A stretch of DNA of 64,000 nucleotides, from positions 18,089 to 82,088 of the forward strand of contig JBIJBF010000003.1 in the NCBI GenBank assembly GCA_044345375.1, read 5' to 3'. The notes under the pieces are model-generated. The model was not told the DNA's origin. It worked only from the letters and a program-made list of their open reading frames with translations, and searched no databases. Source of the DNA: Alphaproteobacteria bacterium. Lineage in GTDB: Bacteria; Pseudomonadota; Alphaproteobacteria; CAISOG01. Positions 29,598 through 54,975 of the stretch are shown piece by piece (within the stretch, counting starts at the first letter, position 1; every line of letters begins with the position of its first letter). Both the position numbers and the translations under genes were made by a program.

Positions 29598-30028
29598 AGA
29601 TGTCGGTTGGCCTGTAAGCTGGGTTTTGTCTGGGCGGTGAACCGCCCTGGATGGCCATTCATCTTGGGGTGGAATTGCTTCCACACCTCTAGCAACCGAC
29701 CCGCAGAGCCATCGTGGAAACCCGATTGAGTCCCCGAAAAACGGGGGCTCGCGCCCTGCCTATTTGGTTTTGCTCCGGATGGGGTTTACCGCGGCCACGA
29801 TCGGTTGCCCAATCGGCGGTGCGCTCTTACCGCACCTTTTCACCCTTACCGCCCAAGGGTCGAAACCCAAGGACGGCGGTATCGTTTCTGTGGCACTTTC
29901 CCTTGAATTGGCGTTTTCAGCCAACCCCGCTGGGCGTTACCCAGCATCCTGCTTCCATGGAGCCCAGACTTTCCTCTCACCAGCCGAAGCTGAGCAAGCG
30001 GCCATCCAGCCAACCGACGCCGCCATCG
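29598..30028 (-). ncRNA. rnpB: RNase P RNA, bacterial type A
   Basis: The minus strand carries GAGGAAAGUCUGGGCUCC (P4 5' strand), GGUAAGGGUGAAAAGGUGCGGUAAGAGCGCACC (the P10/11-12 consensus), GGUAAACCCCAUCCGGAGCAA and ACAAAACCCAGCUUA (P4 3' strand). P1 is formed by GUCGGUUGGC near 30019 pairing with GCCAACCGAC near 29605. Ends are estimated to within about 5 nt. Confidence 0.9.
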
Positions 30029-30066
30029 TGGCCGATCGGCCTGTTTTGTCAAGAGTGGGGGGACGG

Positions 30067-32179: not shown

Positions 32180-33395
32180 ACGGCTGTATTACAGCTGGGC
32201 CTTTTGGGCGCGCCCTGAACAGCTGCCGCCGGCCGGTTTGTGGCGGGTGTGGCTGATTCTGGCGGGACGGGGCTGGGGCAAAACCCGAACCGGCGCCGAA
32301 TGGGTTAGCTGGCAGGTGCAAACCGGGCAGGCCAGCCGTATCGCCCTGGTCGCCGCAACGCTGCATGAGGCGCGCAGCGTGATGGTTGAGGGGGCCAGCG
32401 GCTTGTTAAGCTGCAGCCCGCCGTGGAACCGCCCGCGCTATGAGCCATCGAAACGGCTGCTGACCTGGCCCAACGGCGCGGTGGCGCAGTGTTTTGGCGC
32501 TGAGGAGCCGGACAGCCTGCGCGGACCGCAGTTTGATGCGGCCTGGTGCGACGAATTGGCCAAATGGCCCCGTCAGGGTGCCTGGGATCAGCTGATGTTC
32601 GGGCTGCGTTTGGGGCAAAACCCGCAGGTGGTGGCAACGACCACGCCCCAGCCCGTACCGCTGATCGAAAGCCTGGCAAAAAAGGCTGAGGTGGTGGTGA
32701 CAAGGGGCAGAACGCTGGACAACCGTGCCAATCTGGCGGCGGGATTTTTGAGCGAATTGGAGCAAACCTATGCCGGCACTTGGCTGGCTGCGCAGGAGTT
32801 GGAGGGCGAGCTGCTTAGCGATGCGCCAGACACCCTGTGGCCCGCTAAGATTTTGGCGGAGTCGGTGATCGAGCCGGCGTCTGCGCCGCCGATGGTGAAA
32901 ACGCTGCTGGCGATCGACCCTGCCGTAACCAGCCATAGCAGCAGCGACGAAACCGGGCTGGTGGTGGTGGGATTGGGGGAGGATGGGGTGTTTTATGTGC
33001 TGCAAGATGCCAGCGACCGGCTGCGGCCAGAGGTGCTGGTGGAACGGGTGGCGGCGCTGGTTGCCCTGCACAGCATTGGTCAGGTGGTGGTTGAGGTCAA
33101 TCAGGGCGGCGACTGGCTGCTGGAGGCCTTGAATAGTGCAACCTTGGATGCCGTGGTCCAGCCGGTGCGCGCGGTTCAGGACAAATGGACGCGGGCGGAA
33201 CCGGTGGCCATGCTGTATGCGCAGGGTCGGGTGAAGCATGTGGGCCGTCTGCCAACGCTGGAGGCGCAGCTGCGGGCCTGTCGTCGTGGGACTAGGAGCG
33301 GAGGAATGGATCGGGTGGATGCGCTGGTTTGGGCGATTCGCAGTTTGAAACAGGCCAGCGTTAAGCAGCGCGGGTTTGCGGTTCGGGTGGTTTAG
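32022..33395 (+). CDS. Phage terminase large subunit (GTA g2-like TerL)
   Basis: LLASLSDQEVERLYYSWAFWARPEQLPP...WRVWLILAGRGWGKTRTGAEW is the N-terminal signature shared by alphaproteobacterial GTA-type large terminases. An ATPase Walker region and a C-terminal nuclease-like DxD pattern are present. The exact start is uncertain (32022 or 32082). Confidence 0.8.
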   Translation: MAVMDEKKPKPRKSARAIAPMNFANCSAAIWLSCQPKSRRAKLLASLSDQEVERLYYSWAFWARPEQLPPAGLWRVWLILAGRGWGKTRTGAEWVSWQVQTGQASRIALVAATLHEARSVMVEGASGLLSCSPPWNRPRYEPSKRLLTWPNGAVAQCFGAEEPDSLRGPQFDAAWCDELAKWPRQGAWDQLMFGLRLGQNPQVVATTTPQPVPLIESLAKKAEVVVTRGRTLDNRANLAAGFLSELEQTYAGTWLAAQELEGELLSDAPDTLWPAKILAESVIEPASAPPMVKTLLAIDPAVTSHSSSDETGLVVVGLGEDGVFYVLQDASDRLRPEVLVERVAALVALHSIGQVVVEVNQGGDWLLEALNSATLDAVVQPVRAVQDKWTRAEPVAMLYAQGRVKHVGRLPTLEAQLRACRRGTRSGGMDRVDALVWAIRSLKQASVKQRGFAVRVV

Positions 33396-34036: not shown

Positions 34037-35236
34037 ATGAAAGACTGGATTCAACGACGTTTTTTAAGCCGTTCTGCGGATGCTGTGCCAGCGGCCAAGG
34101 CTAGCAGGGCGGGGCATTTGATGGTTTATGGCCAGCTGAATCAGCCGCGCTGGACACCGCGGCGCTACGACATGCTGGCTGAGGAGGGGTATCGGCGCAA
34201 CGTGGTGGCCTTTCGCTGCATTAAGGAGATTGCGCAGGGGGCGGCGGGGGTTCCCTGGATTTTGTATCAGGGCGATCAGGAGCTGGTTGAGCACCCGTTG
34301 CTGCGGCTGCTGACCAACCCCAACCCCACGCAGGGGCAGGCCAGTTGGGCTGAGATGCTGTACAGCAACCTGCTGATTGCCGGCAATGCCTATATCGAGG
34401 CGGTGGGGGATGGTGACCAGCTGCCGCGCGAGCTTTGGGTGCTGCGCCCCGATCGGATGACGGTGGTGGCGGGGATGTACGGCGTGCCAAAGGCTTATGA
34501 ATACCAGATCAACGGCCAAGTCTACCGCTGGTCGGCGGATGTGGCCAATGGCGCATCCCCCATCCTGCATCTGAAAAGCTTTCATCCGTTGGATGATTGG
34601 TACGGCCTGAGCCCGATGGAGGCGGCGGCCTATGCGATTGATCAGCACAACGAGGCATCCAAATGGAACCAATCGCTGTTGCAAAACGGCGCACGCCCCA
34701 GCGGCGCGCTGGTGGTTCAGATGAGCAAGGATGGGGATGCCAGCCTGAGCAGCGAACAGTTTGATCGGCTGAAAGCGCAGCTGGATGAGCAGTACAGCGG
34801 CCCTGTCAACGCGGGCAGACCGATGCTGTTGGAGGGCGGGTTGCAGTGGGTGGACATGATGATGAACCCCAGGGATTTGGATTACCTGAACGCCCGCTAT
34901 GCCGCTGCGCGTGAGATCGCCCTGGCCTTTGGCTATCCCCCCATGCTGTTGGGGATTCCGGGCGACAACACCTATAACAACCAGCGCGAGGCAAGGGTGG
35001 CGTTGTGGGAGCAAACCATCCTGCCGTTGGTGCACCAGCTGCGCGACGGGCTGAACAACTGGCTGCTGCGGCAGGCTTACGGGGTGGGGGAGGCGCCGTT
35101 GCGGATTGATTACGATCCAGATGCCATCAGCGCCCTGTCGCTGCGCCGTGAACAGCTGTGGGACAAACTGAACAAGGCGGAGTTTCTTAGCACCGATGAG
35201 AAGCGTCAGGCTGCTGGGTATGGGGTGATGGGCTAG
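34037..35236 (+). CDS. Phage portal protein, HK97 family
   Basis: 399 aa with portal-family motif spacing (WILYQGDQELVEHPLLRLL..., LHLKSFHPLDDWYGLSPMEAA..., PMLLGIPGDNTYNN) and the expected position after the terminase. Confidence 0.8.
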   Translation: MKDWIQRRFLSRSADAVPAAKASRAGHLMVYGQLNQPRWTPRRYDMLAEEGYRRNVVAFRCIKEIAQGAAGVPWILYQGDQELVEHPLLRLLTNPNPTQGQASWAEMLYSNLLIAGNAYIEAVGDGDQLPRELWVLRPDRMTVVAGMYGVPKAYEYQINGQVYRWSADVANGASPILHLKSFHPLDDWYGLSPMEAAAYAIDQHNEASKWNQSLLQNGARPSGALVVQMSKDGDASLSSEQFDRLKAQLDEQYSGPVNAGRPMLLEGGLQWVDMMMNPRDLDYLNARYAAAREIALAFGYPPMLLGIPGDNTYNNQREARVALWEQTILPLVHQLRDGLNNWLLRQAYGVGEAPLRIDYDPDAISALSLRREQLWDKLNKAEFLSTDEKRQAAGYGVMG

Positions 35237-35317: not shown

Positions 35318-35953
35318 GTGATGAGACAAGGATTGGTTTTGCTAACCGCGCCAGCGGTTGAGCCGGCCACGTTGGTTGAGGCGAAAAGCTATTTGGGTGT
35401 GCTGGATCCGGCCGAAGATGCGCTGATCGGCAATTTGATTACCGCTGCCAGACAGGCGGTGGAGAGCTATACGGGGCGGGTGTTGATCACCCAAAGTTGG
35501 CGTCTGACGCTGGACAACTGGCCAGAACCTAAGGTTGGGGTGGGATCGGACTGGTTAAGCCTGCAACAGGATTGGCCAGCGCAGTTTTCTGGGAACGGTG
35601 GACTGGTGGTGGTTGAGTTGCCCAAGGCGCCGCTGCAAAGCGTTAGCGGGGTTCGGGTGTACGACAGCAGCGGGGTGGCCAGCACGGTTGCGCCGTCCGC
35701 CTATGTCGTGGACACCACCACCACGCCAAGCCGGTTGGTGTTTGGCAGCAATATCAGCCTGCCCGCGGTGGGGCAGGTGGCACGCGGCATTGAGATCGAT
35801 TTTGTTGCCGGTTATGGCGCCTCAGCCACCAGCCTGCCAGCCATGCTGCGTCAGGCGGTGTTGGCGGGGGTTAAGGTTTTGTACGAGCGGTCGGGTGGCG
35901 CCATGTCGAGCGCGTTGCGGTTGGCCGAGCTGTTCAAGCTGAAAAGGATATAG
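35318..35953 (+). CDS. gp6-like head-tail connector protein
   Basis: The N-terminal pattern LVEAKSYLGVLDPAEDALIGNLITAARQAVESYTGRVLITQSWRLTLD is diagnostic of the phage gp6-like connector (Phage_connect_1) family. Confidence 0.75.
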   Translation: MMRQGLVLLTAPAVEPATLVEAKSYLGVLDPAEDALIGNLITAARQAVESYTGRVLITQSWRLTLDNWPEPKVGVGSDWLSLQQDWPAQFSGNGGLVVVELPKAPLQSVSGVRVYDSSGVASTVAPSAYVVDTTTTPSRLVFGSNISLPAVGQVARGIEIDFVAGYGASATSLPAMLRQAVLAGVKVLYERSGGAMSSALRLAELFKLKRI

Positions 35954-35956
35954 AGG

Positions 35957-36475
35957 ATGAGCGACACGGTTTTAACCCTTAGCCTTGCGGGCTTTCCCCC
36001 CCTTGGTTTGCCGCGGGTGGAGCAGGAGCTGCGCCCGATTGCCCAACATGCAACCCGCCGCACGGTGAATGGGGCGTTGCAGGACAGCGGTTGGAGCGGC
36101 TGGCAGAAATTTGAGACGGTCATTACCTGCGAGTTGCCCCTGCCGCCTGCTTTGGGCGGGATTTGGCCGGGGATGGCGGTCACGGTTGGTTGCGTGTTGC
36201 CGCTTTGTGAGCAATTAAGCGGCGCAACCAGCAAAACCTTGGCGAAAACGCCGGTGGCGGGCAGCGTTTATGCGGTGGATGGGCTTGGCAACCCGATTGC
36301 GGTGGTCAGCCTTAGCGGCAAGCTGCTGACGCTGGCCAGTTTTAGCGGCACCGCCAGCATCACCTATCGCCCCAGCCTTAGCATGCGGGTGGTGGATTTG
36401 CGTCTGACCACCAAGGAGGCGCCGCGTGGCAGCCGTAATGCCGGCGGTTGGCGGCTGGAATTAAGCGAGATTTAG
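35957..36475 (+). CDS. Hypothetical phage structural protein
   Basis: 172-aa intact ORF tightly packed between the connector and the next structural gene. Host-like GC. No recognisable motif. Confidence 0.4.
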   Translation: MSDTVLTLSLAGFPPLGLPRVEQELRPIAQHATRRTVNGALQDSGWSGWQKFETVITCELPLPPALGGIWPGMAVTVGCVLPLCEQLSGATSKTLAKTPVAGSVYAVDGLGNPIAVVSLSGKLLTLASFSGTASITYRPSLSMRVVDLRLTTKEAPRGSRNAGGWRLELSEI

Positions 36476-36486
36476 GGGGTCAAAAC

Positions 36487-38409
36487 ATGTTGTATTTTGC
36501 TTGGGTGGATGCCAACGAGGCTTGGAATGCCAGCCTGCATGCTCTTGAGGATGAGGCGTTGTTGCAGGTGGATCTGCAGCAGCTGGAGGGCAAGCCGGCG
36601 CAATTGCAGATTTTGGTGCGGAACCCAGGTCAGGGCTTGCTGAACCCCGCGCGCAAGACCCGCGCCTTTCTGAGCCATCAGGGGGCTGGGCAAAGCGTGC
36701 CGGTGTTGATGTTTGCGGGTCGGGTGATTGCGGTGGCGCAGGTGGACGGCAGCGAGCTGGTCCGCATCACCCTGACCGCCCTGCCTAATGACGCGGCGGC
36801 GTTGCTGCAGAGCTTTAGCGCTGGGTTAAAGGTGGCGCCCTATTGGGATGATTTGTTTGTCAGCCCCAGCCGTCGTGATGATCCGGATGAGGTGTTAAAG
36901 GCGAGAGATGCGGTGTATTGTTGGGACAAGCTGACCAACACGGTGTCGTTAAGCGGCCTGTTTGTCGGCAATCAAAGCCTGAATCTTGGCCAAAATTTTT
37001 TCTACGACAGTTTGCAGCAGGAATTGGCTGAAACGCCGCTTAGCGCGGTTGAGATGACGGTGGTGGCCGAATGGGCGCAGCAGGCGCGCGGTATAACCGA
37101 CGTAACCCGCCGGATTGAGCGGGCCTTTGGCGGGCAAAAAATCAACAGCCTGACCGGCCGGGATTTGGCGGCGCGGTGGCCATCGGCGGCCAAGCTGATT
37201 AATCGGCAATCGGGCTATCAGGTGGATCAGGCGCAGTTGCAGGAATATGTGCCGCCAGCTGGTGCCGCCAGTGTGTATCCCACCGCCAGCGTGTCGGTGG
37301 AGATGGGGGTTGAGGAGTACCCCTATCCAGCTGGTGTCACCAAGCCTGCGGGCAATAGCCGGCCGTTGTTTGTGAAGCGTTGGTGGTTTAACGCCAAGCT
37401 GGTGCTGAGCTGGCATTATCGGCAAAAACGGCGGGAGGAGCTGCTATTCCGGCTGAACCATGCGGTGCAGGCGGTGGCGCCAAGCGGTGGAGCGGTGCAA
37501 AAAATTGCGGTGACCATGCAGGAACTGCTGCTGGATACCGCGACGCCGACTTGGGGGGCTGGATACAGTTATCAGCTGGGGGATCAGGTGCGGTTTGGCG
37601 CCTTTGTCTACCAATGTTTGTTGGTGCATAGCGCATCCAACAGTTTTGCCAGCGATCTGGCGGCGCTGAAATGGAAGCAATTGGCCGCAGATGCCAGCGC
37701 GCTGGGCGCAGGGTGGCGCAGCAGCTTTTTTGTGACCAGCCGTGGCCAGCAGGCGGTACAGCACGCGATTGAACGGGCGCGGGCAGCGCTGGCCAGATCC
37801 CTGCGCGCCGTGCAGATTACCGTGCAGGCGCGTTGGGAGGATTTGCAGGGCGTGGGTTTGGATCACAGCCTGACGATCAGCGACCAACGCCTGCCGGGCG
37901 GCACGGCGACGGGCAAGGTGGTTGGTCTGCGTTTTTATGCGGATGGCGACAAGGGGCAGGCGTGGGCTGAGGTAACGATGGCTTGTGCGGTGGGGACTGG
38001 GGCGGCGCAACCAACGCCGGCGGCGGGCAGTGGCAGCTATACCGCTGATGGCTATGACAGCCTTGGCTGGCAGCCGCGTCAAAATGGCCAGTTGGCCAGT
38101 GTTAGCGGTATTGTCTACAACGATGATGTTGCGGGACAGCTTAGCCCGCAGGGATTGCTGTATCCCACCCAGCTGGATGCCCTGGATCTGGTGCGCAAAG
38201 TAACGGTGGTGAATGATGCGGAGCAGCAGAACGCCTATCTGTTGGCCAATCAGTATCCGCAGCGGCGCAACCTGCAGGCGGTGGTCAATGAGAAAAAGAC
38301 CAGCATCAAGCTGGAACTGCTGGACCTGACCGCCGATGACCAACTGCGCCAGCAGATCACCCTGACCATTCCCAATGCTTGGAGTGGTCCTAAGCAAATT
38401 GAGTTGTAA
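36487..38409 (+). CDS. Large phage structural protein, possible tail or receptor-binding protein with a carbohydrate-binding-like module
   Basis: 641 aa from the ATG at 36487 (AGGGGG ribosome-binding site). Contains YQLGDQVRFGAFVYQCLLVHSASNSFASDLAALKWKQL, which resembles the CBM5/12-like Y..N....P...W.. motif seen in phage tail proteins. Confidence 0.4.
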   Translation: MLYFAWVDANEAWNASLHALEDEALLQVDLQQLEGKPAQLQILVRNPGQGLLNPARKTRAFLSHQGAGQSVPVLMFAGRVIAVAQVDGSELVRITLTALPNDAAALLQSFSAGLKVAPYWDDLFVSPSRRDDPDEVLKARDAVYCWDKLTNTVSLSGLFVGNQSLNLGQNFFYDSLQQELAETPLSAVEMTVVAEWAQQARGITDVTRRIERAFGGQKINSLTGRDLAARWPSAAKLINRQSGYQVDQAQLQEYVPPAGAASVYPTASVSVEMGVEEYPYPAGVTKPAGNSRPLFVKRWWFNAKLVLSWHYRQKRREELLFRLNHAVQAVAPSGGAVQKIAVTMQELLLDTATPTWGAGYSYQLGDQVRFGAFVYQCLLVHSASNSFASDLAALKWKQLAADASALGAGWRSSFFVTSRGQQAVQHAIERARAALARSLRAVQITVQARWEDLQGVGLDHSLTISDQRLPGGTATGKVVGLRFYADGDKGQAWAEVTMACAVGTGAAQPTPAAGSGSYTADGYDSLGWQPRQNGQLASVSGIVYNDDVAGQLSPQGLLYPTQLDALDLVRKVTVVNDAEQQNAYLLANQYPQRRNLQAVVNEKKTSIKLELLDLTADDQLRQQITLTIPNAWSGPKQIEL

Positions 38410-38432: not shown

Positions 38433-39131
38433 GTGAGCATGTCAGAGCTGTTGTATATACAGGTTCCCCTGCAAGGGAAAACCCTGTCAGAAATTGGAAT
38501 TTTTGAGGGCTACGCCAGTGTGTTTGGCGTGATTGATCGCCAACAAGATCAGGTGATGCCGGGGGCTTTTCGCAAAAGCCTGCTGAACGCTGAGGCCAAT
38601 CGGGCGATGCCAAAATTGTTGTGGCAGCATGATCCCGCGCAGCCGATTGGGGTTTGGCAGATGCTGAAGGAGGACAGCACCGGTTTGTATGTGCGCGGGC
38701 AGCTGCTGTTGGATTTGCCGCGCGCGCAGGAGGCCTATGTGCTGCTAAAGGCTGGCGCGATGGACGGGCTTAGCATCGGTTATGAGGTGGTGCAGGCCAG
38801 CAAGGATCGCCGCAGCGGTATCCGCCAGCTGTTGGAGGTGAAGTTGTGGGAAATATCGCTGGTCACCTTTGCCGCCAACACTTCCGCAAGGGTTACCGTG
38901 GTGAAGCACGGGCAGGGGGATGGGTTGCCCGAAGCGCAATCGCCCCGTTTGTTTGAAAAATTTCTGCGTGATGCAGGATTCAGCCGCCGCCAAGCGGTCG
39001 CGCTGACCAATCACGGCTGGCCAGGCCTGAAAAGCTTAGCCAGCCAGCCGCGGGATGCGGCGCTACAGGACACAGAATACCGCCAGCTGGTCGCCAAATT
39101 GCGGCAGACGGTTAGCATTCTGCAATCCTAA
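38433..39131 (+). CDS. HK97-family prohead protease
   Basis: The N-terminal LSEIGIFEGYASVFGVIDRQQDQVMPGAFRKSL and the later MDGLSIGY pattern are typical of the HK97 prohead protease (S78). Confidence 0.8.
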   Translation: MSMSELLYIQVPLQGKTLSEIGIFEGYASVFGVIDRQQDQVMPGAFRKSLLNAEANRAMPKLLWQHDPAQPIGVWQMLKEDSTGLYVRGQLLLDLPRAQEAYVLLKAGAMDGLSIGYEVVQASKDRRSGIRQLLEVKLWEISLVTFAANTSARVTVVKHGQGDGLPEAQSPRLFEKFLRDAGFSRRQAVALTNHGWPGLKSLASQPRDAALQDTEYRQLVAKLRQTVSILQS

Positions 39132-39163: not shown

Positions 39164-40387
39164 ATGACGACAGTGTACAACAACGATGCCCCCACCGACG
39201 TGTTGCAGGTGGTGGATCAAATGAACCAAGTGTTTGCCGAGTTTAAAGCGCAGAACAACCAGCTGATTGCGCAGGTTGAGCGCAAAAATGCCGCCGATGC
39301 GGTAACCGTGGACACCGTAAACCGCCTGAACCAACTGCTGCAAAAACAACAGGACAGAATTGACAGCCTGAGCATCAGCGCCAAACGCAGCCCGCTGAGC
39401 CTAAACCAAGGTGGCTATGTTGGCTTGGCCGAGCAGGAGCATAAGGAGGCCTTTATGAGCTATCTGCGCAAGGGGGATGAGCTGGGGCTGCAAGGCTTTG
39501 AACGCAAGGCGTTGAGCAGCACCACCGATGCCGATGGTGGCTTTAGTTTGCCCAAGATTTTGGCCGATTTTATGATTCAGACCATTTTTGATACCAGCCC
39601 GATCCGGCAGATTGCCAATGTGGTGACGGTTGGCAATGATGCCTTTGAGGTGTTGGCGGATGCGACCGAGGCCGCGGCGGCCTGGGTGACGGAGGCGCAG
39701 GCACGGGCTGAAACCGCAACGCCCACCTTTAACAAAATCCGCATTCCGGTTCAGGAATTGGCGGCATCCCCTAGGGCATCGCAGCGTTTGTTGGACGACA
39801 GCAGTTTTGACATGGAGGCCTTTTTGGCGGCGGAGGTGGCCGGCAAATTTGCCAGACTGGAAAACACGGCCTTTGTTTCGGGGACGGGCACTGGCCAACC
39901 ACGCGGTTTCTTAACCTATGCCGCTGGTACCGCCTGGGGGCAGATTGAGCAGGTCAAAACCGGTGTGGCGGGCGCATGGCCGGCCAGCAACCCCGCCGAT
40001 ATCTTGCTGGATTTGATGACCAAGCTGAAAAGCAGCTATCTGAACGGCGCGGCATGGGTGTTGAACCGCAACACGCTGGCCGATATTCGCAAGTTTAAGG
40101 ATACCACCGGGCAGTATATTTGGCAGCCAGGTTTGGGAACCGCATCCAGCACCCTGTTGGGCTACCCCGTTTATCTGGCTGAGGATATGCCAAGCAAGGC
40201 CGCCAGCAGCCTTTCGGTTGGGTTTGGCAATTTTAAACAGGGCTACACCATTGTGGACCGCGTGGGGATCCGCCTGCTGCGCGACCCCTATACCGCCAAG
40301 CCGTTTGTGGTGTTTTACTTTACCAAACGCACCGGCGGCGATGTGGTGAATTTTGAGGCAATCAAACTGCTGCAATTCGCGGTGTAG
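39164..40387 (+). CDS. HK97-fold major capsid protein with an N-terminal scaffolding (delta) domain
   Basis: 407 aa. Coiled-coil N-terminus, then GFSLPKILADF, DEAFLAAEVAGKFARLENTAFVSGTG and a WQPGLGT region characteristic of HK97-family major capsid proteins. Follows the protease. Confidence 0.8.
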   Translation: MTTVYNNDAPTDVLQVVDQMNQVFAEFKAQNNQLIAQVERKNAADAVTVDTVNRLNQLLQKQQDRIDSLSISAKRSPLSLNQGGYVGLAEQEHKEAFMSYLRKGDELGLQGFERKALSSTTDADGGFSLPKILADFMIQTIFDTSPIRQIANVVTVGNDAFEVLADATEAAAAWVTEAQARAETATPTFNKIRIPVQELAASPRASQRLLDDSSFDMEAFLAAEVAGKFARLENTAFVSGTGTGQPRGFLTYAAGTAWGQIEQVKTGVAGAWPASNPADILLDLMTKLKSSYLNGAAWVLNRNTLADIRKFKDTTGQYIWQPGLGTASSTLLGYPVYLAEDMPSKAASSLSVGFGNFKQGYTIVDRVGIRLLRDPYTAKPFVVFYFTKRTGGDVVNFEAIKLLQFAV

Positions 40388-40402: not shown

Positions 40403-40446
40403 GGGGGGGCTGAGCAGCGTTTTGCTTGGCCCCCTTTTTGTTTTTT
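40403..40446 (+). terminator. Hairpin plus T-tract immediately downstream of the capsid gene
   Basis: GGGGGC-(16-nt loop)-GCCCCC followed by tttttgtttttt. It sits between the capsid stop (40387) and the next gene start (40462). Confidence 0.6.
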
Positions 40447-40461
40447 GGAGGGAGCAAGGCG

Positions 40462-41625
40462 ATGCCTATACGCACGTCTATCATTACGACGCAAAATTTT
40501 TCAGGCTACAGCGAGGCCGCTAGTCGGGATGAAAACCCCGATGCTGGCGTGCTGGACTTGGCCAATGAGCAGGGCAGTGATGAGGTGGTGTTGATCGATC
40601 CCTATGCCGCGCTGGATTTGCCCGCCGAAATCACGTTGCGTGCCGGTTTGGTTCCGGTCTATGTGGCCAGCACCAACAACGCGCAGGCGCAGCTGTTGGC
40701 CAATGGCGCGCCCAGCAACCCGGTGGCGGTCAATTTGTACCAAAACACCGGCCGCTTTGCCGGCAGCAATTTGGTGAATGATGAGGCCTTTTACGCGCAG
40801 GAACGCCAGCGCACCATTCAGGAGTTGCGGTTGATCTACAACAATCAGTTTAGCTGGCGCCCCTTTGGCAGCAATGTGGTGTTTAGCGGTTCGGGGGCTA
40901 GCGTTAACGGTTATCCGCTGGTGTTGGGCAGCGGCAACAGTGTGTACAGCAAGCCCTTTGCGGTGCAGCCAAGCGGTGGGTTGGCGACGCTGACCCTGTA
41001 CTACAGCTACAACAGCGGCACCGCGCAATACGGCGCGCAGACCGACAGCGGTTTTGTTAGTAACCCTGCCCATAAGTTGGTTAGCCCAGTGGACAGCAGT
41101 TATAGCGGCGCGCCCAGCAGTTGGCAGGCGATTAAGCTTAGCAGCGGGGTTGAAACACTGTACAGCGCGACCCTGCTGAACCGGCAATTCTATCGCGCCT
41201 ATGGCGGCGACTATGTGGTGGGGATGACCGCCGATCAGGTGCGGCAAAAATGCTTTCGCATCAGCGCGGTGGCCTATAGCACCAGCGGCAACGCCAACAC
41301 CGAGTTTGACACGATGATGGGGGTGGTGAACGCCAGCTTGTGGGGCAGCGGATCCTGCCGCACCCGTATTGGCCAGCCAAGCGATTTGACGAAATATGAG
41401 GATGTGTTGGCGGCGGGCAGCCATCTGGCCAGCGGCGATTTTGCTAGCCCCGAACAGGTGATCAGCCTGGCCAGCGCGTTGCAGCAGGGGATGGCCAAAA
41501 TCCAGCTGAATCTTGGGTTGGACAGCAACGGCCAGCCGATTTTTGGCCAGTATCAATCGGTGGCCTGGAGCCACCCCGGGGGGGATGCGAGCCTGATTGA
41601 TGTGACTTTTGTACCAATCGGTTAG
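40462..41625 (+). CDS. Hypothetical phage structural protein, possible tail or baseplate component
   Basis: 387 aa from the ATG at 40462 (GGAGGG ribosome-binding site). Ser/Gly/Asn-rich and beta-predicted. No recognisable motif. Confidence 0.4.
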   Translation: MPIRTSIITTQNFSGYSEAASRDENPDAGVLDLANEQGSDEVVLIDPYAALDLPAEITLRAGLVPVYVASTNNAQAQLLANGAPSNPVAVNLYQNTGRFAGSNLVNDEAFYAQERQRTIQELRLIYNNQFSWRPFGSNVVFSGSGASVNGYPLVLGSGNSVYSKPFAVQPSGGLATLTLYYSYNSGTAQYGAQTDSGFVSNPAHKLVSPVDSSYSGAPSSWQAIKLSSGVETLYSATLLNRQFYRAYGGDYVVGMTADQVRQKCFRISAVAYSTSGNANTEFDTMMGVVNASLWGSGSCRTRIGQPSDLTKYEDVLAAGSHLASGDFASPEQVISLASALQQGMAKIQLNLGLDSNGQPIFGQYQSVAWSHPGGDASLIDVTFVPIG

Positions 41626-41657: not shown

Positions 41658-43238
41658 ATGACGATTGTGTTGCGAACGGTTAAGGGCGCGCCCCTGACCA
41701 TCACGGAAATTGACGGCAATTTTAGCCAGTTGACGGACAGGCTGACGGCGCTGGAGCAGAATCCGCCGCTGGCGGAAAGCATTGGTGCGATCAGCGTGCA
41801 GGGCGATCAGCTGAGCATTCTGGGCAATCGGGGCAGCAATTTTGGCCAATTTGCCCTGCCGGTTGCGCAATTGGTGGCGCGTGGGGTTTGGGCAACCGCC
41901 ACCGCCTATGCCAAGCTGGAGATGGTCAACGCGCCCGATGGCAATGGCTATATTTGCCTAACCGCGCATACCAGCGGGGTGTTTGCCACCGATTTGGCCG
42001 CCAACCGTTGGGCTAAGCTGGTCAATGCTGGCACGGCTGGTGTAACCGGTAAGGTGTTAACCGGCGCAGGCCTAACCGGTGGCGGTGATTTGTCGGTGGA
42101 TCGAACCCTAAGCTTAGCATCGATGCCTGCCAACAGCCTAAAGGGCAACAACAGTGCCAGCACGGCGGTGCCGGTCGATTTAACCGCCGCGCAGGCCGCC
42201 GCCATGCTGCCAGCGATGCTTGGCGACAGCGGCAGTGGTGGGGCTAAGGGGTTGGTGCCAGCCCCGGCGGCTGGGGATGCGGCGGCGGGCAAATTCCTGA
42301 AAGCCAATGGCACTTGGGCGGTGCCTGCAGGCGGCGGTGGGGGCGGTAGCGTTGGTGGAAGCTCAGGGCAGCTGCAGTACAACAGCGCTGGCGTTTTTGC
42401 TGGCGCCACCAATCTTAAGGTGATCGGCAGTGGCGCGGGGTTGAATTTTGGCGGGGTGGCGCTGCAGCCTGCGGCCAGTGCGGGCAGCCTGAATCTGTAT
42501 GCCAACAACGAGCTTGGCCAGGCTTTCTTAAGCCTGCGCAGCGATACCGCCCCCGAAGCGTTTGTGCAGGAATGTTTGGGGCATCGCAGTGTGGCGATCA
42601 TTTTGCCCAGCAGCGGCGGGTTGGTGGCCTCATTTGGGGTTAACACCAGCAACGCCGGCAGCATTACCCACAGCAGCAGCGCGGCGATAGGCTATTGGAT
42701 CGCCAATGCCACAACAGCGACGGCCAATAATGATGTCTATTTTGCCACGGCGGCCAATTATTTTTACCGCAACCTTGGGTTTTACCACGCCGCGACCCTG
42801 AACTATCCCGATGCCAGCTATGGCGCTGGCGCGACTGGAACCCGCATCGGCGTTGGGTTGGTGGCCAATGCCGCCAGCAATCTGTTGGCCGGTGATACCC
42901 TATTGACCGCTGGCTGTGGTTTTCAGTATTCGACCAACCGTGGGGATAGCAATTGGCAGCTGGTTAGCTTTGACGGCACCACCCAAACCACGGTGAACAC
43001 CGGCATGGTTTTTGCCCCCGCCAAGCTTTATCAGTTTGAGCTGTTTGCCGCGCCCAATGGCGGCAGCCTGAATTGGCGGATCAAAAACCTGACCGACAAC
43101 AGCATGCAGAGCGGGGTGGTCACCACCAACCTGCCGCCAGCCAGCACCGGACTGATGATGATGGCGGGTGTGCGCAACCTAGGCGCCAGTATCCGCAACA
43201 TGCAAATGAAACGCATGTATGGAACTAGCTCTATTTGA
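41658..43238 (+). CDS. Phage tail fibre protein
   Basis: Motifs LTGGGDLSVDRTLSL, KGNNSASTAVPVDLT and GLVPAPAAGDAAAGKFLKANGTWAVP, a poly-Gly hinge (AGGGGGGSVGGSSG), and QLQYNSAGVFAGATNL are all typical tail-fibre repeats. Confidence 0.75.
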   Translation: MTIVLRTVKGAPLTITEIDGNFSQLTDRLTALEQNPPLAESIGAISVQGDQLSILGNRGSNFGQFALPVAQLVARGVWATATAYAKLEMVNAPDGNGYICLTAHTSGVFATDLAANRWAKLVNAGTAGVTGKVLTGAGLTGGGDLSVDRTLSLASMPANSLKGNNSASTAVPVDLTAAQAAAMLPAMLGDSGSGGAKGLVPAPAAGDAAAGKFLKANGTWAVPAGGGGGGSVGGSSGQLQYNSAGVFAGATNLKVIGSGAGLNFGGVALQPAASAGSLNLYANNELGQAFLSLRSDTAPEAFVQECLGHRSVAIILPSSGGLVASFGVNTSNAGSITHSSSAAIGYWIANATTATANNDVYFATAANYFYRNLGFYHAATLNYPDASYGAGATGTRIGVGLVANAASNLLAGDTLLTAGCGFQYSTNRGDSNWQLVSFDGTTQTTVNTGMVFAPAKLYQFELFAAPNGGSLNWRIKNLTDNSMQSGVVTTNLPPASTGLMMMAGVRNLGASIRNMQMKRMYGTSSI

Positions 43239-43282: not shown

Positions 43283-43546
43283 ATGGATAAAATAACCATC
43301 AATAATGCACTAAATCGTCTTCTTGAGCAGGCCGCAAAACGCGGCGCGCAACAAGCCCTGGCTGAGCTGGGGTTGCATGACCGCAATGCTGGAGAAGATA
43401 TGCGTGATTTGCGGGGGTTGTTGGATGCTTGGCGCACCGCAAAGCGTACCATCGGACAAACCCTGCTGAGAACGTTAACGGTTATGTTGCTGATCGGCAT
43501 GCTGACGGGCGTTTTGATCAAGTTAAAGATGGTTGCTTCGAACTAA
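43283..43546 (+). CDS. Putative holin or small membrane protein of the lysis cassette
   Basis: 87 aa. Charged N-terminus, a single C-terminal transmembrane helix (LLRTLTVMLLIGMLTGVLI) and a basic tail. Immediately upstream of the endolysin and overlapping it. AT-rich start context. Confidence 0.45.
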   Translation: MDKITINNALNRLLEQAAKRGAQQALAELGLHDRNAGEDMRDLRGLLDAWRTAKRTIGQTLLRTLTVMLLIGMLTGVLIKLKMVASN

Positions 43547-43580
43547 TTCATTTGGGAGCAGGAATTTCGGGAGGATGGAG

Positions 43581-44069
43581 ATGACGGATGGATTCGACTG
43601 GGCCATTGAAGTTGTTTTGCGGCACGAGGGTGGGTATGTGGACGATCCAGATGATCATGGCGGTGCCACCAATTTTGGCATTTCGCAACGCCAATACCCC
43701 GATTTGGATATCAAAAAACTGACGCGTGAGGATGCGATTGCTATCTATCGCCGCGATTGGTGGCAGGCCTATGGCTATGGTCAGATTACAGACATGATGG
43801 TGGCCACCAAAGTGTTGGATTTATCGGTGAATATGGGGCCAGGCACCGCCCATCGCTTGACGCAGCGGGCACTGCGCGCGGTGGGGTTGATGGTTTCTGA
43901 GGATGGGGTGTTGGGGCCGGTGACGCTGGGAGCGTTGAATCAGGTGATGCCGTCAAACCTGTTAAGCGCGCTGCGGGCTGAGGCGGCGGGGTATTACCGC
44001 TGTTTGGCGCTTAAGCAAAAATCTTTTGAAAAATTTCTAACAGGCTGGTTAAATCGTGCCTATGCGTGA
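43581..44069 (+). CDS. GH108-family endolysin (N-acetylmuramidase) with a C-terminal PG_binding_3 domain
   Basis: FDWAIEVVLRHEGGYVDDPDDHGGATNFGIS is the GH108 catalytic signature. The C-terminal part (LGALNQV...AEAAGYYRCLA) resembles the peptidoglycan-binding module. GGGAGG ribosome-binding site before the ATG at 43581. Confidence 0.8.
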   Translation: MTDGFDWAIEVVLRHEGGYVDDPDDHGGATNFGISQRQYPDLDIKKLTREDAIAIYRRDWWQAYGYGQITDMMVATKVLDLSVNMGPGTAHRLTQRALRAVGLMVSEDGVLGPVTLGALNQVMPSNLLSALRAEAAGYYRCLALKQKSFEKFLTGWLNRAYA

Positions 44070-44109
44070 ATTCATGTTCCTTTCATGAAAGTTTTGTTAG
44101 AATAGCCGA

Positions 44110-45864
44110 ATGGTTGATCAATCTGACAATATAGATCCAACGGCTGCACCCCCTGAGGAGGCGGCCGCGCCTATCGATGCGGGCGCGGTTGGCTTTAATC
44201 CACGCCGCCGTTCGGCGCTGAGGTTTCAGGCACCGCTTGTAACGGTTAAAGAGGAGGGGGTGGAGACAAGGGAATCCCCATCCGCACAGGACGCGTCGCC
44301 GGCTAAAGATCCGCAGCAGGCGGCCGCTTCCGTTGCTGGTGATTCGGTGGAAAAAACGGCCGTGGAATCGGTAACGGTTGTTGAAGATCCTGTTAATCCT
44401 GATTTGACCCGTCCGGCCGATTTTCCTAAGGCGACCTCGCCCAAAGAAATGGTGCCTGAGCCCAAAAGGGGCGGGGATGCCCCCCTGGCTCCACCGCCGT
44501 CCAGTGTTGTGACCAGGCCATTTGCCGGCAAATCTTTTGTTGGCCCGACGGAAGGGTCAGTGGCGGGTGATCAAAAGGCCGATAGGGCAAGTTCAACCAG
44601 CGTGCAAGAGCCAGTGGTTGAGGCAAGCAAGGGTGGCGGGGCTGCCCCAACCGTTGCTGAAACCGCCGAATCGGTGCCCGATTTTCAAGACTGGCTGCGA
44701 CAGCGGCAGGAGGCGTTGCGAAAAGCGCGCGAACGTGCCCTGAGACGTGAAGAGGCTTTGGGGGATGCGGCCAAAACGGTTCAAGACTCTGCATCCGATT
44801 CCCCCAAAGAGGTTGCGGAGCGGCAGGAACCTGTTTTGCAGACGATCGGGAGTCAATCCACCGCCAATGCTGCCGAAAATCAGGGCAATGAAAGCAAAAC
44901 GGCGGCGGCACCGATCGGCTTTAACCCCAATCGGGGCAAGCGTTCAACCGCGTTTAACATTCCCCCGCCTGCAGATGCGGTGGTATCCACCACGCCTAAG
45001 GCTAAGGCCGAATCAACCGCGGCTGAGGAGCCGTTGGCGGCCAGCCGTGCGGCGCCACAAGATGACGGGCCAAATCAGGCTTTTGATCTCAACGAAGCCG
45101 CCCTAGGCACGCATGGCACGGTGGAAAAGGTTCTCAGCTCAACCGAACTGATCGAAACGCCCGCGCTGAAAGCGTTGAAAAATTTTATGGATGGCAAAGC
45201 GCCGGATAAGGAAAACGCGGCTGCGGTTGCGGTCAAATCCAAGAAAAGTTTTTTTAGCATCAAAAAAATCCGGCAAAGGCTTTATGACTTTGTTTTTTGG
45301 GCTGTAAGTTTTCTGGTGCTGGCTGGTGGATGGACGTTGTTTGTCTATGGAATCATGGTGTTGTTTATTGCGATCAACCCCATTCCTTTTGTGGATGCTG
45401 GTGGCAATGTGTTGTGGAGTTTTGATGCGCGCTACACAAGCCACTGGATCGGGCTGCGGCAGTATTTTAACGCTGGTGCGGTGATTCCATGGTCGTTGGT
45501 GTGGGCGGTGGTGTTGGCTTTTTGTGTGTGGTTGTTGCCTGGAATTGCGCTTTTAAAGCAAGGGATTCAGCCGACCAGCTCGGTTTTCAAGCGTCAGCTT
45601 GATCGGCGTTGGTATCAGATAAAGCGCTTGTGGAGAAAGCCCGATGAGGCCGAAAAGGTGTTGTTAAAAACATCGATGGCCGATATTGAGGGGATGTTGA
45701 CGCAAGCCCGTAAGGAGGCTGAGGCGGATCTGAAAAAACGTAAGGTGGCCGCGGCGGGCGGCACCCCAGGTGGCAGTCAGGCCAATTCTATGGCGCCGGC
45801 GGGCCCAAGCCCCGCCGCGATGGCCAGTGCCGCGGCCAGCAGAGGGTCTGGCGGCAATGGATAG
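44110..45864 (+). CDS. Membrane protein of unknown function with a long disordered N-terminal region
   Basis: 584 aa. About 400 aa of P/A/E/S/T-rich low complexity that includes two GFNP.R..S.AF motifs and a coiled-coil, then about four transmembrane helices (FVFWAVSFLVLAGGWTLFVYGIMVLFIAI...WSLVWAVVLAFCVWLLPGIALL) and a basic, Gly-rich tail. Confidence 0.35.
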   Translation: MVDQSDNIDPTAAPPEEAAAPIDAGAVGFNPRRRSALRFQAPLVTVKEEGVETRESPSAQDASPAKDPQQAAASVAGDSVEKTAVESVTVVEDPVNPDLTRPADFPKATSPKEMVPEPKRGGDAPLAPPPSSVVTRPFAGKSFVGPTEGSVAGDQKADRASSTSVQEPVVEASKGGGAAPTVAETAESVPDFQDWLRQRQEALRKARERALRREEALGDAAKTVQDSASDSPKEVAERQEPVLQTIGSQSTANAAENQGNESKTAAAPIGFNPNRGKRSTAFNIPPPADAVVSTTPKAKAESTAAEEPLAASRAAPQDDGPNQAFDLNEAALGTHGTVEKVLSSTELIETPALKALKNFMDGKAPDKENAAAVAVKSKKSFFSIKKIRQRLYDFVFWAVSFLVLAGGWTLFVYGIMVLFIAINPIPFVDAGGNVLWSFDARYTSHWIGLRQYFNAGAVIPWSLVWAVVLAFCVWLLPGIALLKQGIQPTSSVFKRQLDRRWYQIKRLWRKPDEAEKVLLKTSMADIEGMLTQARKEAEADLKKRKVAAAGGTPGGSQANSMAPAGPSPAAMASAAASRGSGGNG

Positions 45865-45878
45865 GGGGGACGCCTAAA

Positions 45879-46430
45879 ATGCAGGGGGTGTTTGCGCATG
45901 GCCAGACGTTGGCGGCCTTTTTGGCGGGATCTTTGGCGGGCGTGCAGGTGCTGGCCCTGGTGATCTTGGTCGGTTGTTTGCTGGCGCATTTGGTGTGGGA
46001 CTACCGCGAATTGATTTTGCCCGATGTGCTGAATCTTTTGATTTTGGCTACCGGCCTGGCTGTTGCCGCTTTTGCGCCGCTGCCTGATTGCAGCTGGAGC
46101 CAATCATGGCAGGGGTTTTTGATCGCCCTGGCCAGCGCATGGGGGTTTTACGAGTTGGTTTGGTGGGTGCGGGGGGAGGAAGGTTTTGGGTTTGGCGACG
46201 TCAAGTTGTTTGCCGCTGCAGGCAGTTGGTTGGGGCCAGCCAAGCTGATTGGGATGGTGCTGATTGGATCGCTGGCATCGCTGTTCATCATCGGGTTGCT
46301 GGGGCTGTGTTTGCGCCGTTGGCATATACGGGTGGAATTGCCCTTTGGCCCTGGGCTTATCCTAGGCTTTTTGATGATGCTTGCCTTTCCAGAGTTGATT
46401 GACCACAGCTTGCAGTGGTTGCTGTTTTAG
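45879..46430 (+). CDS. cpaA: A24-family prepilin peptidase (CpaA/TadV-like)
   Basis: 183 aa, polytopic, with the GFGDVKLFAAAGSWLG aspartyl-protease motif. Confidence 0.65.
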   Translation: MQGVFAHGQTLAAFLAGSLAGVQVLALVILVGCLLAHLVWDYRELILPDVLNLLILATGLAVAAFAPLPDCSWSQSWQGFLIALASAWGFYELVWWVRGEEGFGFGDVKLFAAAGSWLGPAKLIGMVLIGSLASLFIIGLLGLCLRRWHIRVELPFGPGLILGFLMMLAFPELIDHSLQWLLF

Positions 46431-46523
46431 GTAGCCGCAACGCCTATGTGCCGCGGTTTTTATCAAAAAGGTTGCTTCAATCATCGGTCAGGATCATAAT
46501 AAAAGATTATAGGATAAAAGCAG

Positions 46524-53418: not shown

Positions 53419-54975
53419 ATGTTGACGGCATTAACTGCGGAAATATTGTTGAAGCTGCTGGTGTTTGGCCCAGCCGCGGTTGCGTTGGTTTTGGCCCTGC
53501 TGGCGCCCTGCGTTCGGCAGCTTGAGTGCCGCGATTGGGTGGTGCAGAAAATTGGTCTGCTGGCGGTTGTTGCCAGCTTAGTGGTGTCCGCCAGTTTAAG
53601 CGTGATGTTTGTTGTGGATAGGTCGGGTTTTCAGTTTGTCAGCCGGATCGGCTTTAACCTGCCGTTTGAGCTCAGCTTTGGCTTGGATGGGTTGTCACTG
53701 ACCCTGGTGCTGCTGACCAATTTTCTGATTCTGTTGACGCTGATTTCGGGTGAAAACTCTATCAAGCAACGGCGCAGCGCCTTTGTGATCAGCGTGCTTT
53801 TCTTGCAAAGCTTTTTGCTGGCGGTGTTTTGCACGCTGGACATCTTTTTGCTGTATGTGTTTTTTGAGGCGATGTTGATCCCGATGTTTGTGATTATCGG
53901 GATTTGGGGGGGGGAGAACCGCACTTATGCGGCTTTTAAATTCTTCCTCTACACCCTGGCGGGATCGGTGTTGATGCTGCTGGCCTTGATTTATCTGTAC
54001 CAATTGGCGGGCACCTCGTTTTTGCCTGAGTTGTTTGCGTCTGATCGTATTGCGGCCATTCCGGCGCATGTGCAGCGGCTGTTGTGGTTCGCCTTTTTTG
54101 CCAGTTTTGCGGTGAAAATTCCCCTCTGGCCATTCCATACTTGGTTGCCTGACGCGCATGTGCAGGCGCCAACCGGTGGATCGGTGTTGTTGGCTGGTAT
54201 CCAGCTGAAATTGGGTGCCTATGGATTTTTGCGGTTGGCGATGCCGCTTTTGCCGCAAGCCACCCAGCAATTGGCCTGGGTGCTGGCGCTGTTGGCGATC
54301 ATCTCCATCATCTATGCCTCCCTCGTTGCGTTGGCGCAGCAGGATATGAAAAAACTGATCGCCTATTCCAGCGTGGCGCATATGGGGATCGTGGTGTTGG
54401 GGTTGGTGGCCAACAATCTTTATGGCCTGCAAGGGGCGATGGTGCAGATGATCAGCCATGGCTTAAGCTCCGCCGCGCTATTCCTGTGTGTAGGCGTGGT
54501 GTATGATCGGCTGCACAGCCGTGATATTGCCAGTCTAGGCGGCTTAATCCCGCGGATGCCGATCTTTGGCTTTTTCTTTTTGTTGTTCGTGATGACCGGA
54601 ATCGGCCTGCCCGGCACCTCAGGCTTTGTTGGCGAATTTTTGGTGTTGTTGGGGGCGTTTAAGGCGCAGCCGGTATTGGCGGTGTTGGCGGGAACGGGCA
54701 CCATTTTGGGGGCGTGGTACAGCCTGCGCCTTTATCGCGGTGTGATGCTGGGGGATGCCCACCATCCGGAAACCGATCAGGTTCAAGATCTAAATGGGCG
54801 TGAGATCACGATGTTCAGCCTGTTGGCGGTTGGTGTTTTGTATTTGGGCATTCAACCACAGGGGGTGCTGGACTTGCTGCAAGTGCCCAGCAACTTCTTG
54901 GTAGGCAAGGCTGCAGGGCTGCCGCCGCCAAGTCTGGTGCCAGACTTTTTTAGAGAGATGTTGCAATGGCGATGA
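53419..54975 (+). CDS. nuoM: NADH-quinone oxidoreductase subunit M
   Basis: 518-aa antiporter-like subunit (WLPDAHVQAPTGGSVLLAGI). Confidence 0.9.
   Translation: MLTALTAEILLKLLVFGPAAVALVLALLAPCVRQLECRDWVVQKIGLLAVVASLVVSASLSVMFVVDRSGFQFVSRIGFNLPFELSFGLDGLSLTLVLLTNFLILLTLISGENSIKQRRSAFVISVLFLQSFLLAVFCTLDIFLLYVFFEAMLIPMFVIIGIWGGENRTYAAFKFFLYTLAGSVLMLLALIYLYQLAGTSFLPELFASDRIAAIPAHVQRLLWFAFFASFAVKIPLWPFHTWLPDAHVQAPTGGSVLLAGIQLKLGAYGFLRLAMPLLPQATQQLAWVLALLAIISIIYASLVALAQQDMKKLIAYSSVAHMGIVVLGLVANNLYGLQGAMVQMISHGLSSAALFLCVGVVYDRLHSRDIASLGGLIPRMPIFGFFFLLFVMTGIGLPGTSGFVGEFLVLLGAFKAQPVLAVLAGTGTILGAWYSLRLYRGVMLGDAHHPETDQVQDLNGREITMFSLLAVGVLYLGIQPQGVLDLLQVPSNFLVGKAAGLPPPSLVPDFFREMLQWR

Follow-up and report, generated by a model that had tools for sequence, protein, structure and literature searches.

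A lineage-specific gene pair encoding a hairpin-anchored, largely disordered protein and a short A24 peptidase in an uncultured alphaproteobacterial clade

Introduction

What is a 584-residue membrane protein of largely disordered sequence doing between a phage-type lysis cassette and a lone prepilin peptidase gene? The question is posed by a contig of an alphaproteobacterium (JBIJBF010000003.1, assembly GCA_044345375.1), of which we analysed a stretch of 64,000 nucleotides (positions 18,089 to 82,088 of the forward strand); this whole stretch is called the window here, and all coordinates count from its first letter. We refer to the protein as X584. The enzyme encoded downstream belongs to peptidase family A24, and to our knowledge all characterised bacterial members of that family process pilin-like proteins for type IV filaments. 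A preliminary description of the locus had left two possibilities: X584 could be the last gene of a phage-derived element, or it could be part of a degraded Tad/Cpa pilus locus. Judged from sequence conservation, X584 and the peptidase appear instead to constitute an autonomous, lineage-specific chromosomal operon that merely abuts a phage-like cluster in this species.

Prepilin peptidases cleave after a conserved glycine at the cytoplasmic face of a hydrophobic helix whose N terminus lies in the cytoplasm (N-in)(PMC4471445; PMC10191384). The class III signal peptide of their substrates is a short hydrophilic leader of 6-26 residues that ends in glycine (PMC4471445). These features provide the yardstick against which X584 is read below as a possible partner of the peptidase.

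Results

A conserved gene pair

The two genes and the elements at their borders are as follows.

44110-45864, plus strand: X584 coding sequence, an open reading frame (ORF) of 584 residues with no other start codon between its ATG and the in-frame stop upstream
45879-46430, plus strand: short A24 (GxGD) aspartyl peptidase of 183 residues, without the N-methyltransferase domain
44070-44109, plus strand: conserved upstream region with an extended -10-like element (TG at 44095-44096, TAGAAT at 44098-44103) that ends 6 nucleotides before the ATG
46400-46431, plus strand: hairpin and T-run overlapping the peptidase stop codon, a possible end of the two-gene transcription unit

The peptidase gene starts after a gap of 14 nucleotides 3′ of X584, which leaves no room for a terminator between them. 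The pairing recurs in the relatives: an A24 gene stands 14-70 nucleotides downstream in every locus that extends past the 3′ end of an X584 homologue (L001-L007, L014, L020 and L021; L016, used for the upstream lysis genes, is not among the loci counted for this pairing). The outer neighbours differ between loci. Same-species contigs (L014, L016) show the order found here, DUF6127, GH108, X584, A24 and obg; the distant relatives carry groES/groEL, usg and a gene for a 1018-residue UvrD-like helicase upstream, and an FMN reductase gene downstream.

Conservation continues into the DNA that precedes the pair. Approximately 45 bp upstream of the X584 ATG are conserved across lineages, with about 27 of 42 positions common to L001, L002, L005 and L006 despite the different upstream gene. 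The -10-like element reads TGTTAGAAT here and TGATACAAT in the relatives, at the same distance from the ATG, the general form being TGnTAnAAT. No Shine-Dalgarno sequence was found upstream of the ATG, and a scan for two-hexamer promoters called none there. We infer that X584 has a promoter of its own and that its mRNA may be leaderless or nearly so. The conserved stretch starts directly behind the stop codon of the muramidase gene, so that the border of the phage-derived element can be placed at about 44070. At the other end, terminator-like sites in the region are as frequent as expected from shuffled sequence, which makes the hairpin weak evidence for a terminator at 46400-46431.

Taken together, the pairing is constant while the outer neighbours differ, and the pair keeps its own upstream region; hence the reading as an autonomous chromosomal operon, from which we also infer a functional coupling of X584 and the peptidase. 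Further signs of fluid surroundings come from extra ORFs next to the pair: a minus-strand ORF of 216 residues, without a Pfam match, lies between the UvrD-like helicase gene and the X584 homologue in two loci (L002, 9221-9871; L004, 6114-6764), and an ORF of 79 residues, transposase-like in appearance, follows the peptidase gene in another (L021, 882-1121, minus strand).

The conserved pairing bears directly on whether X584 closes the phage-derived element, with a spanin-like, ejection or superinfection-exclusion function and expression together with the lysis cassette. The cassette lies immediately upstream.

43283-43546, plus strand: DUF6127 holin-like gene (PF19622, E = 3e-22)
43533-44069, plus strand: muramidase gene with GH108 and PG_binding_3 domains

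As the preliminary description had stated, X584 directly follows these genes in the same direction, starting 40 nucleotides past the muramidase end, and the arrangement is repeated in the same-species contigs L014 and L016. Beyond the species the association ends. The homologues of the distant relatives sit between the UvrD-like helicase and A24 genes with no phage genes in the flanks (L001-L007, L020); tblastn with the DUF6127, GH108, capsid, portal and terminase proteins of the window gave no match in loci L001-L013, and no phage families were found among the called genes of L001-L004 (flanks of about 10 kb). Searched with X584 itself, 50,697 phage genomes (tblastn), IMG/VR and PHROGs gave no match, and the promoter-like region upstream of it is conserved independently of phage genes. 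Nor was an att-like direct repeat found between the left side of the cluster and the 40-nucleotide gap before X584, the longest common word being 10 nucleotides. The phage origin of X584 is thus already contradicted, and we regard it as highly improbable. Of the two linkages that a search for co-occurrence in relatives could have revealed, the one with the peptidase was found in all informative loci and the one with the phage cluster was not.

A clade-restricted protein family

Among 5.8 billion proteins, a word-indexed search found ten full-length homologues of X584 besides an identical protein, at 36-41% BLASTP identity (44-46% when measured in a MAFFT alignment). When 1.84 billion representative proteins were searched exhaustively with an HMMER profile, two full-length clusters and five fragments were all that matched. 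The homologues come from freshwater metagenome bins, labelled either Holosporaceae bacterium or Alphaproteobacteria bacterium, which represent a narrow clade; scans of genome and metagenome contigs with X584 gave no lineage beyond it.

The preliminary description had not recognised the architecture of the protein, and database comparison leaves it equally unfamiliar. X584 has no Pfam match at E <= 0.01, and none was obtained at E <= 5 across all 11 family members; searches of NCBIfam, PHROGs and PADLOC were likewise empty, and the family profile found no real match among PDB sequences (best E = 0.44). The remote-homology part of the check that had been suggested was hence negative, and the structure prediction returned two transmembrane (TM) helices, described below. 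X584 is a real gene and founds an orphan, clade-restricted family, whose members are predicted to be anchored in the inner membrane by a hairpin and to have long disordered regions in the cytoplasm.

Architecture of X584

The features of the protein, in order along the plus strand, are given with the corresponding residues.

44191-44226, plus strand: Motif 1, residues 28-39, GFNPRRRSALRF; family consensus F[NR]PRRR..[VL].F, with F29, P31, R32, R33, R34 and F39 invariant
44398-44430, plus strand: motif PDLTRPADFPK, residues 97-107, with P97, D98, L99, R101, P102, A103, D104, P106 and K107 invariant
44674-44745, plus strand: charged helix, residues 189-212, VPDFQDWLRQRQEALRKARE...; family form VPDFQxWLRQRQEALRKARE, 80% conservation
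44917-44970, plus strand: Motif 2, residues 270-287, GFNPNRGKRSTAFNIPPP, with G270, F271, N272, P273, N274, R275, G276, R278, F282, N283, I284 and P285 invariant
45082-45204, plus strand: juxtamembrane cytoplasmic region, residues 325-365, F.LNE..LG....V.KVL.STEL.ETPALKALK.F, 61% conservation, with a short helix at 351-360 in the AlphaFold2 model
45283-45393, plus strand: TM1, residues 392-428, delimited by Kyte-Doolittle hydropathy and predicted N-in/C-out; AlphaFold2 helix 384-422
45394-45465, plus strand: predicted periplasmic loop, residues 429-452, of near-neutral charge, with short strand elements at 427-436 (AlphaFold2)
45466-45561, plus strand: TM2, residues 453-484, delimited by hydropathy and predicted to run from out to in; AlphaFold2 helix 461-484
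45562-45861, plus strand: predicted cytoplasmic C-terminal tail, residues 485-584, comprising LDRRWYQ, a charged helix at 523-548 and a Gly/Ala-rich end

The N-terminal 390 residues are rich in alanine (16.7%) and proline (9.7%), with serine and glutamate abundant. The composition and the disorder agree with the earlier account of some 400 low-complexity, acidic and Pro/Ala-rich residues; the acidity is only mild, at a net charge of -9. AlphaFold2 assigns X584 an overall pLDDT (predicted local distance difference test) of 46 and leaves approximately the first 390 residues disordered except for a helix at 192-225. The charged helix is the sole confidently modelled part of this region (pLDDT about 85 over residues 191-210).

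Conservation across the alignment, 42% overall, is unevenly spread: about seven short motifs in the N-terminal region form conserved islands between variable, indel-rich linkers. The island at residues 97-107, for instance, reaches 65% against about 18% in its flanks and has the family form PDLxRPADxPK. The pattern looks typical of a disordered protein acting through short linear motifs. Two copies of a GFNP.R..S.AF motif had been reported; GFNP does occur twice (residues 28 and 270), in GFNPRRRSALRF and GFNPNRGKRSTAF, and the longer pattern fits neither copy exactly. A BLASTP comparison of the two halves of the protein gives E = 0.09, so that an internal repeat is not significant, and a repeated 4-mer is roughly what chance would produce at this size. 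The motifs are real by their conservation, since the second is invariant in all homologues (GFNPNR.G.R..FNIPP) and the first is kept as F[NR]PRRR...F, without the glycine.

The C-terminal part departs further from the preliminary description, which had it as a four-helix membrane module. Only two hydrophobic segments are present (residues 392-428 and 453-484), and AlphaFold2 models them as two helices. Many residues are invariant in both. TM1 contains the invariant G406-G407-W408-T409-L410 (nucleotides 45325-45339), a candidate site at which the A24 enzyme might cut or recognise the protein, within a wider invariant form L-x-G-G-W-T-L-x-V, and the loop between the helices (residues 429-452) is conserved and aromatic-rich (D429, G432, W436, F438, S444, H445, W446, Y452). 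A strong basic cluster closely precedes TM1 (KSKKSFFSIKKIRQR) and another closely follows TM2 (KRQLDRRWYQIKRLWRK), and the loop is near-neutral; by the positive-inside rule, both ends of X584 would therefore be cytoplasmic (N-in/C-in). With both ends in the cytoplasm and only about 25 residues in the periplasm, the protein would be unsuited to act as a spanin, a further point against a phage function.

The cytoplasmic tail of 100 residues, absent from the earlier account, is among the best-conserved parts of X584 (76% over residues 513-560 and 61% over 561-584), with a near-invariant end, KKRKVAAAGGTPGGSQ.NS...AAASRGSGGNG. The conserved C-terminal helix holds an invariant KKRKV (residues 542-546, 45733-45747), which may be coincidental. 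KKRKV is identical to the core of the simian virus 40 nuclear-localisation signal, and Holosporaceae, the label of related metagenome-assembled genomes, is a family that includes intranuclear symbionts of protists.

Three candidate identities were also discarded. A twin-arginine translocation (Tat) signal at the N-terminal RRR motif has no hydrophobic region after it; a split-off N-terminal domain of PilD would carry Cys pairs and match PF06750, and neither is present; and a GlyGly-CTERM-like sorting signal is inconsistent with a Gly-Gly TM segment that is not C-terminal.

The A24 peptidase

The downstream gene encodes a member of family A24 that appears to be active. Its product matches PF01478 with E = 2e-15 and 57.6 bits (cut-off 26.5) over profile positions 2-102 of 104. 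The predicted catalytic residues are D41 (nucleotides 45999-46001) and D107 within GFGFGD (46197-46199), two conserved aspartates being required in A24 peptidases (PMC10191384). In an alignment with 10 diverse A24 proteins, D41, G104, G106, D107 and K109 are invariant. The AlphaFold2 model is all-helical, with 8 helices and a pLDDT of 87.8; in a Foldseek comparison with the PDB the top TM-score went to FlaK (3s0x) with TMq 0.47, which is not significant (E = 1.6). Orthologues in the clade share 64-71% identity and are thus better conserved than X584. The retention of the catalytic residues together with this identity across the clade indicates purifying selection.

Outside the clade, similarity falls abruptly to 33-41% identity (E about 1e-12). 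Two of the outside relatives lie in type II secretion system (T2SS) loci, one in Hyphomicrobium (L012, adjoining GspD, GspK and GspG genes) and one in Bradyrhizobium (L017, with T2SS M, PilN, K and pseudopilin genes). In a third locus (L009) pseudopilin-like genes stand a few kb off, and in two more (L010, L018) the A24 gene stands alone amid unrelated genes. None of the next-nearest A24 peptidases examined outside the clade has a disordered, two-TM protein like X584 encoded upstream.

No partner of the usual kind was found near the peptidase gene. Pfam scans of the large ORFs revealed no pilin, pseudopilin, secretin, Tad, T2SS or type IV pilus (T4P) gene in the 64-kb window, and a regular-expression search of its six frames found neither a class III signal peptide nor the Flp motif (G....EY). 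Within about 10 kb on either side in the relatives there was no canonical class III substrate and no filament gene. The enzyme is, as first described, a lone A24 peptidase without pilin or secretin genes nearby.

Could the pair be what is left of a Tad/Cpa (Flp pilus) locus after degradation, with X584 as a decayed or fused pilus-assembly gene and the peptidase as a leftover CpaA or TadV? The enzyme is short and lacks the methylase domain, like CpaA and TadV, and the cpaA gene of Caulobacter directly follows the pilin gene. X584, on the other side, is intact and conserved over its full length with its motifs kept, and so is not a pseudogene; no Tad/Cpa family of Pfam or NCBIfam resembles it. 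No Flp motif occurs in any frame, and neither the window nor the called genes of the relatives include TadA/B/C/Z, RcpA or CpaB-F. The peptidase, for its part, keeps its catalytic residues and its identity across the clade, and its nearest outside relatives are linked to T2SS. Since neither the window nor the flanks of the relatives show a relic of Tad, Cpa or pilin genes, this second proposal of the preliminary description is very unlikely.

TM1 as a candidate substrate of the peptidase

Given a conserved operon and no filament gene near it, we considered X584 itself in relation to the peptidase. G407 is the only glycine of X584 that precedes a TM helix of the right orientation, and what follows it in TM1 is pilin-like: WTLFVYGIMVLFIAINPIPFV (residues 408-428), about 21 hydrophobic residues with a predicted N-in orientation. 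Because TM1 is N-in like a prepilin helix and its invariant GG↓WTL resembles G↓FTL, X584 is favoured as the partner of the peptidase and probably as its substrate.

A model for the pair can be put forward on this basis. X584 would be a two-helix hairpin of the inner membrane with both termini in the cytoplasm, and its N-terminal region, with about seven motifs and one charged helix, would have the anatomy of an interaction hub. The co-expressed GxGD peptidase would have the hairpin as its dedicated partner and most likely as its substrate, and a cut at GG↓WTL in TM1 would free the disordered cytoplasmic domain of 400 residues from the membrane. Coupling combined with cleavage of X584 by the peptidase is a tentative proposal, and a cut at precisely the GG↓WTL site is more doubtful still; both the cleavage and its position are speculative.

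Several observations weigh against cleavage. The 'leader' up to and including G407 amounts to 407 residues, as compared with 6-26, and its last 13-14 residues are hydrophobic, not hydrophilic. The +5 position is occupied by valine in all homologues, with no glutamate, and there is no match to N_methyl (PF07963). A loose G↓[FWYMLIV][ST][LI] pattern followed by a TM segment occurs twice in the approximately 19,800 residues of the window, the other copy lying in a polytopic membrane protein encoded at 53419-54975; such a loose pattern can accordingly arise by chance. The conservation of X584 is drawn from two lineages only, namely the present species and a closely knit group of relatives. Outside the clade, the enzymes nearest to the peptidase serve T2SS loci, and the genes of prepilin peptidases often lie apart from those of their substrates; the negatives for filament genes cover the 64-kb window and flanks of about 10 kb in the relatives, and a T2SS or T4P elsewhere in the genome is possible.

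These points converge on the main competing explanation, which we consider well possible: the A24 enzyme does the ordinary work of a prepilin or pseudopilin peptidase for a T2SS or type IV pilus encoded elsewhere, and X584 is an uncut, co-transcribed membrane scaffold specific to the lineage, which might assist or position that machinery much like FimV, HubP or PodJ, or be unrelated to it. The T2SS loci of its closest outside relatives (L012, L017) fit this explanation, as do the short A24 genes that stand alone (L010, L018). The TM1 site lacks most features of a class III signal peptide (PMC4471445), and the acidic, disordered and motif-rich cytoplasmic region would suit a scaffold. An ordinary role of the enzyme is harder to reconcile with the lack of any T2SS, T4P or Tad gene within 64 kb here and about 10 kb to either side in the relatives, and with the fact that the pair and its promoter region stay together though both flanks have been rearranged. 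X584 also lacks the LysM, TPR, Sel1 and peptidoglycan-binding domains of FimV/HubP/PodJ-type scaffolds and differs from them in topology.

Partnership without cleavage is a further alternative. X584 might be a regulator, anchor or inhibitor of the peptidase whose hairpin docks uncut, or else the hub of a cytoplasmic process that has nothing to do with the enzyme, for example division or polarity, with an operon link that is only regulatory. The TM hairpin and its short periplasmic loop are conserved beyond the needs of a passive anchor, and disordered regions with conserved motifs accord with such a role. A very indirect point is the absence of ftsA from both of its usual positions in the window (see below), which suggests that the lineage may have membrane tethers not yet known. 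X584 shows no binding domain or motif recognisable from a known system, and we hold this alternative to be rather unlikely.

Genomic surroundings in the window

A compact phage-derived cluster on the plus strand, spanning about 30.1-44.07 kb (about 14 kb), interrupts the housekeeping DNA of the window and ends with the lysis cassette described above.

32022-33395, plus strand: large terminase
34037-35236, plus strand: portal
35318-35953, plus strand: head-tail adaptor
36448-38409, plus strand: protein of 653 residues without assignment
38433-39131, plus strand: S78 prohead protease
39164-40387, plus strand: HK97-type capsid
40426-41625 and 41658-43238, plus strand: two large proteins without assignment, the second Gly-rich

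The order is unusual in that protease and capsid follow the adaptor and the 653-residue protein. No integrase, tail tube or tape measure was recognised in the cluster, which may be a gene transfer agent (GTA)-like or a defective short-tailed element.

Read with Pfam, the remainder of the window is a housekeeping region: uppS, cdsA, dxr, rseP, bamA, lpxD, fabZ, lpxA, ftsZ, carA, mgtE and obg, as well as glnA, pyrD, nuoJ-N, ddl, ftsQ, der and mutY. A full-length class A RNase P RNA (RF00010, 268 bits) is encoded at 29599-30017 on the minus strand, between mgtE and the left end of the cluster; ORFs overlapping it (e.g., 29714-30094 and 29764-30384) are therefore spurious. Beside this rnpB gene, at 29290-29600, lie several GC-rich palindromic units, e.g., GTCAGGC[GA]CAGCCTGAC...GGGGTGGTT and CCCCTCC..GGAGGGG, of repetitive extragenic palindrome (REP) type in look.

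Two islands of low GC content, 11001-13000 (0.41-0.45) and 18000-21000 (0.47-0.51), stand out from the value of about 0.57 elsewhere. The first contains an ORF of 612 residues without a Pfam match (11163-13001), and the second contains genes for a 592-residue HEAT-repeat protein (18587-20365, minus strand) and a Sel1-repeat protein (20649-21458). Eukaryote-like repeat proteins such as these are typical of host-associated bacteria. The ftsZ gene (624 residues, 16537-18411, minus strand) lies about 40 kb from ddl-ftsQ (57505-59663, plus strand). Since ftsQ is followed by der and the HEAT-repeat gene is upstream of ftsZ, ftsA is missing from both usual positions. A stand-alone ATP-synt_ab ATPase of 556 residues (13169-14839, minus strand) matches N-terminal beta-barrel and V/A-type C-terminal domains, with no other ATP synthase, flagellar or type III secretion genes beside it.

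Discussion

The pair described here can be set beside several known systems. In its layout, an A24 GxGD gene directly after the gene for a membrane protein, it resembles prepilin and peptidase pairs such as PilA/PilD, GspG/GspO, Flp/TadV and PilA/CpaA. The helices resemble each other as well: both are N-in, and the invariant Gly-Gly of X584 is followed by W-T-L and about 20 hydrophobic residues, as compared with G↓F-T-L-I-E in prepilins. Unlike pilins, X584 has no globular pilin head, and no gene for an assembly ATPase, platform protein or secretin stands near. Its second TM helix returns the chain to the cytoplasm, and X584 is therefore not a filament subunit; by its leader, its +5 residue and the missing N_methyl match, the sequence likewise does not qualify as a pilin.

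The short A24 enzymes of the T2SS loci in Hyphomicrobium and Bradyrhizobium share the form of the clade peptidase, without the DiS_P_DiS methylase domain, at 33-41% identity. They differ from it in setting: their genes lie among gspD, gspK, gspG, pilN and T2SS-M, whereas the only constant neighbour of the clade peptidase is X584. We found no relevant literature on orphan A24 peptidases or non-pilin substrates in Alphaproteobacteria/Holosporales, nor on DUF6127.

A model for a cut at the Gly-Gly of TM1 is offered by presenilin, signal peptide peptidase and FlaK, which belong to the same catalytic clan as A24 and act on N-in helices. Helix-destabilising glycine residues inside the substrate helix favour cleavage by GxGD intramembrane proteases. 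We know of no bacterial A24 enzyme with a role in the regulated release of a large cytoplasmic domain. The A24 peptidase might have been recruited from pilus biogenesis as a dedicated intramembrane protease, so that the two genes would form a self-contained module for regulated proteolysis of the presenilin or signal peptide peptidase kind; we think this improbable. By analogy only, spoIIGA-sigE shares the operon logic, with the gene of a membrane aspartyl protease beside that of its single substrate; SpoIIGA, a protease of the Firmicutes, is not known to be an A24 enzyme and acts on a soluble, folded substrate, pro-sigma-E.

Like X584, the polar scaffolds SpmX, FimV and HubP are anchored in the membrane and have long disordered stretches of acidic or Pro-rich sequence. 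SpmX, which derives from a phage lysin, has two TM helices at its end; FimV promotes the function of type IV pili. X584 differs from these proteins and from PodJ in having no muramidase, LysM or TPR domain, no FimV C-terminal motif and another topology, and no sequence similarity to them was detected.

Our best guess for the role of X584 is that of a disordered hub, tethered to the membrane, which acts together with the peptidase and may be cleaved by it. If the peptidase does not act on it, X584 is one more lineage-specific hypothetical protein of an uncultured, probably host-associated alphaproteobacterial clade. In either case, X584 should not be annotated as part of a phage-like element or as a Tad remnant, and the locus presents an A24 enzyme whose conserved operon partner is not a pilin but a disordered protein anchored by a hairpin. 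If the peptidase does act on X584, it would be the first candidate for a bacterial GxGD protease that releases a cytoplasmic domain from the membrane.

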